Below, piece after piece: positions 16,179-18,026 of a DNA stretch of 64,000 nt. This DNA is from Candidatus Poribacteria bacterium (GTDB lineage: Bacteria > Poribacteria > WGA-4E > PCPOR2b). The translations under genes were made by a program, and so were the position numbers. The notes below the pieces were generated by a model. It did not search any database, was not told the DNA's origin, and was given only the letters and a program-made list of their open reading frames with translations. The DNA lies in the NCBI GenBank assembly GCA_965116925.1, contig OZ220744.1:2464001-2528000 (forward strand), in the 5' to 3' direction. How positions within the stretch are numbered: position 1 is the stretch's first letter; every line of letters starts with the position of its first letter.

Positions 16179-18026
16179 TCATTCAATTGGAATCTGTACC
16201 CTTTCTTCACCCAAAACGCTGGATAATACCTCTATAAGTTCATCAAGGTGGATATGTCGAAAAAACTCAGAAAGCCGTTTCTGCTTCGGTTTAGTTGGTA
16301 GAAGGATGAAATCCTGATGATGCTTTTGGACTCGTTCTAAAACCTTGCGATAGGCGTGGCTTGTAGCATAGCCGACAATCAGTTCATAGTGTGCTTTATG
16401 GCGATCAAGATAGGCGTTGAACCGATCTGCACCGAGTTGAATCTGAGCAGCGTTTCGAGGTAGCAGTTGAAAATCGTAACGGACCACTGCCTCTTTTGAT
16501 TCAAATTCTTCGGGGACGGGACCATAGAGTCCCGAAAGGGTAATTTTGTGGATGAACCGCTGGCCTTTGCCGAATGCGGTGTGGAGTTTCGTTTTTACAA
16601 TGGAATGGGTGCGCGACAGAGAATACGGCTTCTTGCCAGCACAGGGGATTGTCAAAAGAATCCGCTTCTCTGTAGGCGGCTGGTAATTCGGCGGGATTGA
16701 AAATGAGTCGGGGGTGTAGTTCAGCGAGAGGGCTTGTTTCGTCGGTTGAGTTGTTAAACGTTTGGGGACGGGGACAACGCTTTTTGACATCTTCGATGCA
16801 AATTCCTCCCTGTTTTCAATCAACCAGCTGACTGCATCTCGAACGCCACGTGCTTTTGAGGCGTGACGGACGAGTGCTTCAAGTGAATCACCGGCTTTTA
16901 TCGCTTGCACCATGTTGTCAAGGGTTGCGGCCTCCATCTCGAAATTGTGAAGCGCGATTTTAGCGTAGTAGTAGCTTTTATATTGTCCTGTCGAAGTGCG
17001 TCGATAACTTTTTGGCTCCATGAATGCTTGTTGCATCTCTTCAAGGCAGGTTTCTCGGCAAATACGACAGGTGCATTCCATCGAATCTAATTCTAAGATC
17101 TTGAGTTTCTTTCCTGTCTCCGGATGTGAATAGCTGAGGCTACGCGCTGCTTGAATGTAACTTGTGCTGTCAAAACTATCTACCCCCAAATATGCGAGTA
17201 TGGGAGTCAAGTTACCGGAGACTCCGAAGGCGTGGATGGGAGTCCGATCTCGTGCGGATTCAGGGATGGCGTCAAGGACACCGCATATCCGTGATAGCAC
17301 TTCTGAATCGTTATCGCCCCGTAGGGGTACGAGCGAGCCGACCGCAAGTCCGAAGGGAAGTCGCCCCGGCAACCGTTCAAAAACTTGCGTCACGTAGTTC
17401 TGAATATCTTCTCTGGATTGTCCGTGGCAGCAGATATACAGGTAAGGTGGGTTTTCCATCTCTGCAAGCCGCGCCGCGACTCGAAATGCGTTCTGAAGAC
17501 TCCGCTTCATTCGGGTTTCTGCTTCTGAACGGACGAGACCGGGAGGTAGTGGATAATCTAAGGATGCGATGATGTCTCCACCGAGACTAAGTTGAAAATC
17601 CAGGATATCATCCGCTTCTGTTTCCTTGTGAATACCGTATTCCGAGAGGGAGAGTCCAGCGTTGTAAAGCAGTTTGAAGCCGCCTGAATCCAGAAACATG
17701 GGAGCATCATAGGGGCCGTTGGGTTCCCGGTAGCGTTCACGCATCGGTTTTTCTCGCCAGTAGCCGATGTGCTTGCCTCTGAGGTTAAAATCGAGGAAAT
17801 GCAATACCTGCGAGAGGATTGGCACGTTGTATTTCATAACGTCTTTCAGCAGGTATTTCCATATCCCACCCCCATTTGTGCTCGTGCTCGTCATGAATGA
17901 AAGGACGGGAAATAAAATTGGTGTTGATAGTGGTGGGAGTGTTACGCCGTCGCGCTGTAGATAAAGTTTTCCAATCCTGCCAGCGTTCCGCTGGATTGTT
18001 GTCTGATAAACTGACGTGTCGGTCAT
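16179..18026 (-). CDS. tRNA-guanine transglycosylase family protein (archaeal-type motifs) fused to an ArcS/DUF5591-like domain
   Basis: FLDSGGF, IASLDYP, AVGSLVP, IHAFGV, GVDSFDSTSY, CTCRIC..HN zinc site; C-terminal PCAGKKPYSLSRTH and SGLYGPVPEE. Confidence 0.85.
   Translation of the reverse strand: MTDTSVYQTTIQRNAGRIGKLYLQRDGVTLPPLSTPILFPVLSFMTSTSTNGGGIWKYLLKDVMKYNVPILSQVLHFLDFNLRGKHIGYWREKPMRERYREPNGPYDAPMFLDSGGFKLLYNAGLSLSEYGIHKETEADDILDFQLSLGGDIIASLDYPLPPGLVRSEAETRMKRSLQNAFRVAARLAEMENPPYLYICCHGQSREDIQNYVTQVFERLPGRLPFGLAVGSLVPLRGDNDSEVLSRICGVLDAIPESARDRTPIHAFGVSGNLTPILAYLGVDSFDSTSYIQAARSLSYSHPETGKKLKILELDSMECTCRICRETCLEEMQQAFMEPKSYRRTSTGQYKSYYYAKIALHNFEMEAATLDNMVQAIKAGDSLEALVRHASKARGVRDAVSWLIENREEFASKMSKSVVPVPKRLTTQPTKQALSLNYTPDSFSIPPNYQPPTEKRILLTIPCAGKKPYSLSRTHSIVKTKLHTAFGKGQRFIHKITLSGLYGPVPEEFESKEAVVRYDFQLLPRNAAQIQLGADRFNAYLDRHKAHYELIVGYATSHAYRKVLERVQKHHQDFILLPTKPKQKRLSEFFRHIHLDELIEVLSSVLGEERVQIPIE

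Follow-up and report, generated by a model that had tools for sequence, protein, structure and literature searches.

The window analysed here, a stretch of 64,000 nucleotides, comes from the 6.47 Mb genome of a sponge-associated bacterium, Candidatus Poribacteria, that was assembled as a single contig (OZ220744.1) and is 99% complete. On its minus strand, where the domains and motifs described below also lie, the window carries an open reading frame (ORF) of 615 amino acids (16179..18026, stop codon included) that fuses a tRNA-guanine transglycosylase (TGT) to the DUF5591 core of the archaeosine synthase ArcS. This gene, TGT-DUF5591, belongs to a widespread, uncharacterised and monophyletic family and is no one-off fusion; we consider it a candidate writer of 7-deazaguanines that would hold both steps in one polypeptide.

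Domains, folds and motifs of the fusion protein

Pfam matches two families only in the protein: PF01702 (TGT) over residues 106-387 (E 1.8e-16, 60.6 bits against a cut-off of 26.3) and PF17884 (DUF5591) over residues 447-574 (E 9.1e-14, 52 bits against a cut-off of 26). A preliminary description of this DNA, made from the letters alone, had remarked that no PUA domain was visible, and neither a PUA nor a C2 family is found by Pfam at E 1 or better; both are missing because the chain stops about 40 residues past DUF5591. AlphaFold2, run on an alignment of 30 sequences, gives a confident two-domain model (pLDDT 92.1, pTM 0.90). Residues 3-406 (16809..18020) form a complete (beta/alpha)8 barrel with a zinc subdomain according to VIA-align and Foldseek. 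They superpose on the archaeal TGT (arcTGT) of P. horikoshii (1iq8_A) with Z 37.9 and a root-mean-square deviation (rmsd) of 2.6 Å over 344 aligned residues at 23% identity; this part is a full barrel with its zinc subdomain and no stub. Bacterial TGTs follow at Z ~34.8, and Foldseek places 1iq8_A at E 9.5e-21. No DpdA is seen among the VIA and Foldseek rows listed, which are filled by tRNA TGTs and are uninformative on kinship with DpdA.

A helical linker (residues 407-439, 16710..16808), which includes the lowest-confidence stretch of the model (pLDDT blocks of 77 and 61 at residues 411-430), leads to the C-terminal ArcS core, a Rossmann-like DUF5591 domain at residues 440-608 (16203..16709) delimited by domain model and Pfam. 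Modelled alone, residues 428-615 reach pLDDT 87.2, and among 48,161 representative chains of the PDB the best match is 2q07_A, the A. fulgidus DUF5591 protein AF0587 (Z 15.7, rmsd 2.4 Å, 136 aligned residues, 24% identity), with the second-best chain at only Z 7.8. Sequence searches of the PDB return arcTGT 1iq8 (E 1.4e-14) and AF0587 2q07 (E 1.1e-4).

Translation confirms, at the coordinates that follow, the TGT motifs, the zinc site and the pocket motifs named in the preliminary description. DSGGF (residues 113-117, 17676..17690) provides Asp113, which we take to be the counterpart of arcTGT Asp95 and Z. mobilis Asp102, on numbering drawn in part from a review. LDYP (residues 156-159, 17550..17561) holds the substrate-pocket Asp157, and GVDSFD (residues 281-286, 17169..17186) holds Asp286, the equivalent of the arcTGT nucleophile Asp249. 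The zinc site, Cys318-x-Cys320-x2-Cys323 ... His360, spans 16947..17075, with CTCRIC (residues 318-323) at 17058-17075 and His360 at 16947-16949. In the pocket, GSLVP (residues 230-234, 17325..17339) is arcTGT-like where bacterial Tgt has GGLSVGE, and IHAFG (residues 264-268) follows at 17223-17237; the resemblance to arcTGT rather than bacterial Tgt, proposed earlier, is plain in the alignments. One pair departs from both: His201-Gly202 (17421..17426), kept in at least 90% of the family (alignment block 193-208), occupies the place of Gln-Gly in arcTGT and bacterial Tgt and is a signature of the TGT-DUF5591 family and of its TGT-only sister paralogues.

Conservation was read from 30 family members with 30-60% identity to the query. 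The TGT part is invariant at D113, S114, G116, D157, P159, G226, H265, G268, G281, D286, C320, C323, H360 and N361, and the DUF5591 part at P467, Y468, G502, V504, P505 and R560; C318, C462, K466 and S471 are kept in at least 90% of the sequences, and a 29-sequence alignment of the DUF5591 domain is concordant. The C-terminal domain contains PCAGKKPYSLSRTH (residues 461-474, 16605..16646), an exact match to the ArcS signature PC-x3-KPY-x2-S-x2-H at coordinates identical to those first reported. In the 29 domain sequences the C, K, P and Y of this signature are invariant, with its other P and its S and H retained in at least 90%. A second conserved DUF5591 block, SGLYGPVP, containing G502, V504 and P505, lies at 16512..16535. 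This set of motifs is far beyond chance.

Membership in the TGT superfamily is supported by TIGR00449 (60.4 bits, cut-off 47.6), and the C1 (DUF5591) domain of ArcS with its signature is supported by PF17884, the motif and the AF0587 fold. As a whole protein it stays far below the NCBIfam cut-offs of TgtA/arcTGT (TIGR00432, 93.2 bits against 350), of ArcS (NF040592 and NF053620, 92.1 against 440 and 40.5 against 600, with model positions 142-411 of 575 matched) and of bacterial queuine Tgt (TIGR00430, 22 bits against 306.75), from whose GGLSVGE and YLMGVG its pocket motifs also differ. The NCBIfam ranking puts TgtA and then ArcS on top, with bacterial Tgt and DpdA trailing. The profile check suggested in the preliminary description thus returns TGT and DUF5591, and leaves DpdA far below its cut-off (NF041059, 19.2 bits against 200; PADLOC PDLC02807, 18.6 bits, E 1.5e-4). 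A true arcTGT in our set, P0267, scores 521.3 bits on TgtA and branches outside the family.

The protein shares with arcTGT (TgtA; P. horikoshii 1IQ8) both Asp residues, the GxxVP pocket, xHxFG, FDS and the CxCxxC..H site. Unlike arcTGT, it has His201 for a conserved Gln that the host's own Tgt also has, lacks C2 and PUA, bears a Cys/Tyr/His motif in its ArcS-type domain that sets it apart from the arcTGT C1, and is encoded by a patchy, bacterial gene. With euryarchaeal ArcS, which works with RaSEA, it shares the DUF5591 fold and the exact signature; unlike ArcS it has no C2 or PUA, and its 99%-complete host genome gives no match to RaSEA (TIGR01210). The N-terminal domain of ArcS appears from the profile matches, rather than from any ArcS sequence compared, to be much shorter than the 400-residue TGT found here, and canonical ArcS is said to lack the catalytic Asp residues of arcTGT. 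Published papers define PC-x3-KPY-x2-S-x2-H as an ArcS motif, and ArcS is presented in reviews as a paralogue of TGT whose N-terminal domain is TGT-like, the protein being arranged as Nt, C1, C2 and PUA. The initial wording, an arcTGT joined to an ArcS-motif domain, holds for both domains; because ArcS is itself a TGT paralogue, an arcTGT/ArcS-type lineage with a full catalytic TGT and no C2 or PUA describes the protein better.

A widespread family and its gene neighbourhoods

The novelty claimed for a bacterial TGT-ArcS fusion needs qualification: the fusion is real, and it is not unique. Searched exhaustively, a library of 50% clusters yielded 616 proteins with E no worse than 1e-3, of which 101 reach 1e-30 or better. 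A word-indexed search returned 445 proteins, and among the matches listed (at least 120) all combine PF01702 and PF17884 at 63-93% identity, the named ones being Poribacteria. At least 120 matches are likewise listed from the search that gave names of Cyanobacteria and Chloroflexota, again all with both domains. By names and records the hosts are Poribacteria, Halobacteria, Chloroflexota (Thermogemmatispora onikobensis, Chloroflexia, Anaerolineae) and Cyanobacteria (Coleofasciculus, Allocoleopsis franciscana, Nostoc, Spirulina including Spirulina subsalsa, Limnoraphis, Desertifilum, Dendronalium); Atlas clusters are concordant on these hosts, as a lead only. Both Pfam families occur in 51 of the 66 representatives scanned; the true arcTGT P0267 is counted among them, with a weak match to DUF5591 in its C1 domain, and a PUA family is listed for none of the 66 at an E of 1e-4 or better. 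The present annotation of all members is 'tRNA-guanine transglycosylase' or similar. We found no description of the fused protein or of its bacterial members in the literature searched, which did not extend to Phillips et al. 2010/2012 or to the supplements of the BRIGADE preprint and of PMC12839542.

Two trees of the TGT domain were computed. For the first (FastTree), 170 rows were collected and those with fewer than 150 filled columns or at least 85% identity to a kept row were dropped, leaving 103; for the second (IQ-TREE quick, LG+G4), 46 long, fragmentary or near-duplicate rows were removed by hand, leaving 57. The fused proteins form a single clade in both (84 of 103 rows, SH-like support 97; 43 of 57 rows, SH-aLRT 91), sister (97; 95) to a clade of TGT-only proteins of 386-449 aa that are encoded in the gene clusters of the fused ones. 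Outside both clades fall arcTGT, bacterial Tgt and the small TGT-only proteins. The protein of the window does not group with ordinary bacterial Tgt, a grouping that the preliminary description had named as counting against it. The family is recognisable by both domains, a length of ~600-700 aa, His-Gly for Gln-Gly and monophyly, all of which are found here. The Poribacteria clade (support 100) nests inside a 23-row clade (99) together with members that adjoin DpdJ-like, DpdK-like, YhhQ, QueD, DISARM and GmrSD genes. A further architecture, a TGT fused to Schlafen/AlbA_2 (P0190, 600 aa), falls in the same TGT clade or nearby.

Gene context was taken from 99 loci, with crude ORF calls that were clustered and the cluster representatives annotated. 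When the neighbourhoods of homologues are inspected in this way, as had been proposed at the outset, a neighbour from the deazaguanine pathway or of defence type turns up at 61 of the 76 metagenome loci (pathway 21, defence 56, second TGT-family ORF 26). Annotated neighbours include QueC (247 bits), PTPS, radical SAM, Vut_1/YhhQ, DUF6884, HATPase_c_3, DpdJ (181.6 bits), DpdK (41 bits), DrmA (1050 bits), NsnA/GmrSD (206 bits) and DpdH-like proteins. The commonest layout, from hypersaline samples, has QueC-QueE-QueD on one strand and, on the opposite strand, TGT-DUF5591, DUF6884, a TGT-only protein and a GHKL (HATPase_c_3) ATPase; often a DpdJ-like helicase and a DpdK-like PLD nuclease, and sometimes PbeA/PbeC or DNA2/MkoA-like genes, lie near. 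Haladaptatus and Natrinema megaplasmids carry the same islands in their RefSeq annotation. A 20-kb stretch of one megaplasmid of Haladaptatus sp. YSMS36 (NZ_CP119784.1, locus L108) holds three genes of the TGT family, of 352, 654 and 673 aa, and besides them genes for a DEAD helicase, a PLD protein, DUF6884, an ATP-binding protein and an AAA protein of 1493 aa.

Smaller and different arrangements recur. A minimal set of TGT-DUF5591, a DpdJ-like protein and PLD, with QueD or YhhQ, is found at L040, L041, L043 and L096. On a 187 kb contig of a bacterial metagenome that also carries a bacterial DnaE, TGT-DUF5591 adjoins DISARM DrmB (280 bits), DrmA (1050 bits) and a UvrD/GajB-like helicase (L042:9888-17786). 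GmrSD (NsnA) and HEPN are neighbours at L038 and L058. HerA genes adjoin the fusion at L037 and L054, YhhQ with a PglZ-like phosphodiesterase at L035 and L052, and GNAT at L030; these five loci resemble, by description only, the BREX-related capture (BRC) systems, which comprise TGT and GNAT components and in whose paper text the term 'ArcS' does not occur (PMC12839542, 2026).

Within Poribacteria, distant copies adjoin N6/N4 DNA methylase, Dam methylase and GNAT, Mrr, Uma2, a PIN toxin or a transposase, and one has as neighbour an HKD-SNF2 protein that scores 279 bits on PADLOC 'HKD+Snf2'; a pathway or defence neighbour is present at 8 of 13 such loci. Five Poribacteria loci (L012, L013, L014, L017 at ~5589-5999, and L021:5542-5922) have, directly upstream of TGT-DUF5591, a T-fold gene of 126-136 aa that is QueD-like (PTPS, 58 bits) and leaves a gap of 2 nt to the start of the fusion. 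This upstream gene is absent from the genome of the window, which has a separate tandem QueD.

The nearest known systems of this kind are Dpd, with DpdA/B/C for modification and DpdD-K for restriction (PMC10164549), and BRIGADE, described in a 2025 preprint as exclusive to halophilic archaea (bioRxiv 10.1101/2025.09.15.676423), the main text of which mentions neither TGT, transglycosylase nor archaeosine. The haloarchaeal islands of our family match the published description of BRIGADE, and relatives share with Dpd and BRIGADE the DpdJ-like, DpdK-like and DpdH-like proteins, the preQ0 genes and DUF6884. The last is a distant relative of YaaA/DUF328, the family of DpdC, which is reported to convert dPreQ0 in DNA to dADG (PMC12839542); Dpd thus ends in dADG and makes no ArcS-type product. 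An Atlas cluster of ~590-aa proteins, mostly from Planctomycetota, combines DUF6884 (72% of members) with TGT (51%); this is a lead only, and on domain content the cluster would be a DpdA-DpdC-like fusion.

The solitary copy in its own genome

The modification system proposed earlier is not a multi-gene one in the window: the gene is solitary. On one side it is flanked by argD-like, cyclophilin and KamA-like genes, on the other by two unassigned proteins, a sugar-phosphate isomerase-like TIM barrel and RsgA, an order common only to the ten closest loci. The linked helicase, nuclease and deazaguanine genes that characterise Dpd-like and BRIGADE systems are present in many relatives; such a linked set is neither in the window nor found by tblastn elsewhere in this genome. 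A tblastn search of the host genome at E 1e-5 or better returned no DUF6884, GHKL ATPase, DpdJ-like, DpdK-like, YhhQ, DNA2-like or PbeC-like sequence, nor a match to several unnamed cluster proteins, the exceptions being QueC, QueE, a weak GIY-YIG, a ResIII helicase and a 28%-identical HKD-SNF2 protein. No second DpdA-like TGT was found in the genome.

At E 1e-20 or better the fusion gene is present in 54 of 176 Poribacteria genomes (44 of 133 of good quality), distributed over families as 24/28, 9/11, 0/7 and 19/112, with 15 of 19 in its own genus and two diverged copies in some genomes. The four congeners without it, among them two near-complete assemblies of one or two contigs, have both flanks preserved, separated by 228-592 bp against 2,340 bp in the window, and one of them retains the last 69 nt of the ORF. 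The gene is accessory and forms a clean single-gene indel among congeners. Against ten close orthologues the ratio of nonsynonymous to synonymous substitution rates (dN/dS) is 0.087-0.142, a sign of purifying selection, and the solitary gene is therefore maintained.

The supply of preQ0 was among the points raised in the preliminary description, and the genes named there are all found. FolE followed by a 293-aa ORF with two tandem PTPS/QueD domains (G000:C1:2738110-2739528), the host's entry module for preQ0, lies ~250 kb from the window, with QueE at 3.94 Mb and QueC at 5.58 Mb; equipped with FolE plus QueD, QueE and QueC, the host evidently makes preQ0. A separate canonical Tgt at C1:2215500 (556.9 bits on PF01702) is accompanied elsewhere by QueF, and these two serve the queuosine pathway.

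Directly upstream of the fusion gene, at the site where four close relatives and L021 carry the QueD-like gene, sits a dispersed repeat of ~190 bp (18176..18364, strand unspecified) with 139 blastn matches in its own genome (38 of at least 100 nt) and many in congeners. In four metatranscriptome runs the bin of this repeat has a very high word depth (151-1403), to which copy number, transcription or both may contribute. Fragments of the fusion gene appear in four metatranscriptome runs of one study at a word depth of ~1-5 against 21-40 for argD; these are contigs for which DNA carry-over is possible, and they speak neither for transcription nor for silence.

Two neighbouring genes were considered as partners and set aside. 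A 65-aa Cys-rich ORF (CxxC ... C ... C; 15980-16177, minus strand) begins 2 nt past the TGT stop and has no Pfam family; it is no dedicated partner, because the four congeners without the TGT gene retain it, and it is missing downstream in most distant Poribacteria loci, being found only in the close group and at L024. A lysine-2,3-aminomutase-like (KamA-like) radical SAM gene (LAM_C and Radical_SAM; 12740-13801, minus strand) lies 2.4 kb downstream and is tempting as a stand-in for RaSEA since ArcS uses lysine; local synteny is the sole link found, and we rejected the gene as its synteny is confined to the close group, in which all else is syntenic too. Further along, a giant 1464-aa protein (7426-11820, minus strand) with WD40 repeats, leucine-rich repeats and dockerin domains has near-identical internal repeats that produce mirror ORFs on both strands (9867-10388).

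Predicted chemistry, target and significance

Since both domains are present, complete and conserved, exchange of guanine for preQ0 followed by modification of its nitrile by the same polypeptide, as first proposed, is the natural reading; its chemistry is by analogy with arcTGT, ArcS and the phage pair DpdA2 and ArcS2. With modest confidence we regard the fusion as a two-step 7-deazaguanine writer, acting most likely on DNA, and the copy in the window as a solitary representative of the module of its relatives. In the first step the TGT domain would flip out a guanine in nucleic acid and swap in the host-made free base preQ0, Asp286 serving as the nucleophile that gives a covalent intermediate and Asp113 as acid/base; the arcTGT-type pocket would suit the nitrile of preQ0 and not the aminomethyl of preQ1. 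In the second, the tethered ArcS core would attach an amine at the nitrile of the preQ0 so installed, yielding an archaeosine-type formamidine (dG+) or an uncleaved preQ0-amine adduct.

The closest precedent comes from Vibrio phage nt-1, whose DpdA2 alone is reported to place dPreQ0 in plasmid DNA (PMC10516641) and whose DpdA2 with the DUF5591-only ArcS2 is reported to yield dG+ in E. coli without RaSEA (PMC10516641; PMC6884629). As predicted for our protein, a TGT-family enzyme exchanges preQ0 there and a PF17884 core with PC-x3-KPY-x2-S-x2-H then acts, with no PUA and no need of RaSEA, and it is this pair that suggests a dG+-type product. Unlike nt-1, which has two separate viral proteins, the predicted activity would here reside in one fused cellular protein, and DpdA models give its TGT domain no more than 19 bits. 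The ArcS of Thermococcus is described as making preQ0-Lys, from which RaSEA releases G+; formamidine and uncleaved adduct are both conceivable because Thermococcus needs RaSEA and nt-1 ArcS2 does not, and the adduct in particular because RaSEA is absent here.

The target had been left open between tRNA, other RNA and DNA. DNA that contains 7-deazaguanines has been described for phages and for the bacterial Dpd system. The neighbours of the family, the missing RNA-binding domains and the accessory distribution together make DNA the most likely target. The solitary copy would be an orphan of a module used in Dpd-like, BRIGADE-like and other defence islands, and may have a role like that of an orphan methyltransferase, a self-mark without a linked nuclease that could serve, for instance, as restriction protection or an epigenetic mark.

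Several observations weigh against this reading. The sequence itself does not tell DNA from RNA. DNA is favoured on the gene context of relatives, and that context depends on crude ORF calling and clustering, with counts that are non-independent because many loci, many of them haloarchaeal, are close kin. The immediate neighbours of the gene are housekeeping genes, and by tblastn the genome has no linked nuclease, helicase, DUF6884, GHKL ATPase or YhhQ. Salmonella DpdA depends on the ATPase DpdB (PMC10164549); a DpdB-type partner is not adjacent to the fusion gene, DpdB not having been searched by family. The amine donor and final product are only predicted, and the RaSEA that Thermococcus ArcS needs did not turn up with TIGR01210. 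None of 154 candidate stretches in IMG/VR was confirmed as a relative and tblastn against 50,697 phage records found none, which also led us to reject a viral origin. Finally, the top-scoring known families are tRNA enzymes (TgtA 93.2 and ArcS 92.1 bits against 19.2 for DpdA) and the nearest solved structure is arcTGT; the same bias in score is seen in the TGT-only paralogues of the defence clusters.

These best structural and profile matches are the reason to keep an RNA target as the leading alternative, in which preQ0 would be inserted into tRNA or rRNA by the TGT domain, in the manner of arcTGT, and completed by the ArcS core to an archaeosine-like base. A solitary gene amid housekeeping genes and under purifying selection is what such an enzyme might look like, and arcTGT and ArcS are its nearest characterised relatives by score and structure. 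Yet there is no PUA or C2 RNA-binding domain, the patchy occurrence (54/176 genomes) with a clean indel in complete congeners is unusual for a translation-related gene, and members of the family sit in DNA-directed defence islands and preQ0 clusters. Haloarchaea make tRNA G+ with separate arcTGT and ArcS, and carry the fused proteins as extra plasmid-borne copies. We consider an RNA target unlikely on this balance, though a contender to be taken seriously.

More doubtful still is a role for the gene as the modifying half of a functional defence system with a restriction partner that is unlinked or of an unrecognised type. The effectors beside relatives are diverse (DpdJ/DpdK-like, DISARM, GmrSD with HEPN, HerA, HKD-SNF2, DNA2-like), and the genome does hold the 28%-identical HKD-SNF2 homologue, at 3.43 Mb. 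That homologue, however, lies ~950 kb off and its co-variation with the fusion gene is not demonstrated, the DpdJ-like, DpdK-like, DUF6884, GHKL and DNA2-like candidates gave no tblastn match at the threshold above, and gain or loss at the conserved site involves the fusion gene by itself. Action on free bases, nucleosides or nucleotides in 7-deazapurine metabolism or salvage, for which one may cite that T. kodakarensis ArcS is reported to take preQ0 nucleoside and its 5'-monophosphate as minimal substrates and that a preprint describes 7-deazapurine secondary-metabolite clusters, or decay to an inactive relic, is very improbable given the conserved complete transglycosylase site and zinc subdomain, the action of all characterised TGTs on polymer-bound guanine, the lack of tailoring or export genes near the fusion gene and, for a relic, the dN/dS of 0.09-0.14.

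Returning to the two-step writer of DNA, its current annotation as 'tRNA-guanine transglycosylase' probably names the wrong substrate. In cellular genomes the family is widespread and occurs solitarily or as what would be the marking module of several types of defence system. The prediction is directly testable because the family includes cultured organisms and haloarchaeal plasmids, and the solitary Poribacteria copies, present or absent among near-identical genomes, offer a ready comparison for long-read modification calling. We also entertain, as a speculation of low probability, that Poribacteria, cyanobacterial and Chloroflexota carriers have a chromosomal hypermodified guanine made by the fused enzyme alone, perhaps a stable preQ0-amine adduct such as preQ0-lysine, a DNA base not yet described, with the solitary gene setting an orphan epigenetic or anti-restriction mark that belongs to no restriction-modification pair. 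As described so far, dG+ in DNA has been demonstrated only for viruses (PMC10516641; PMC6884629). If our reading is true, a fused, self-sufficient transglycosylase and ArcS core would be a compact one-gene tool for site-specific base replacement and would extend dG+-type chemistry to cellular chromosomes.

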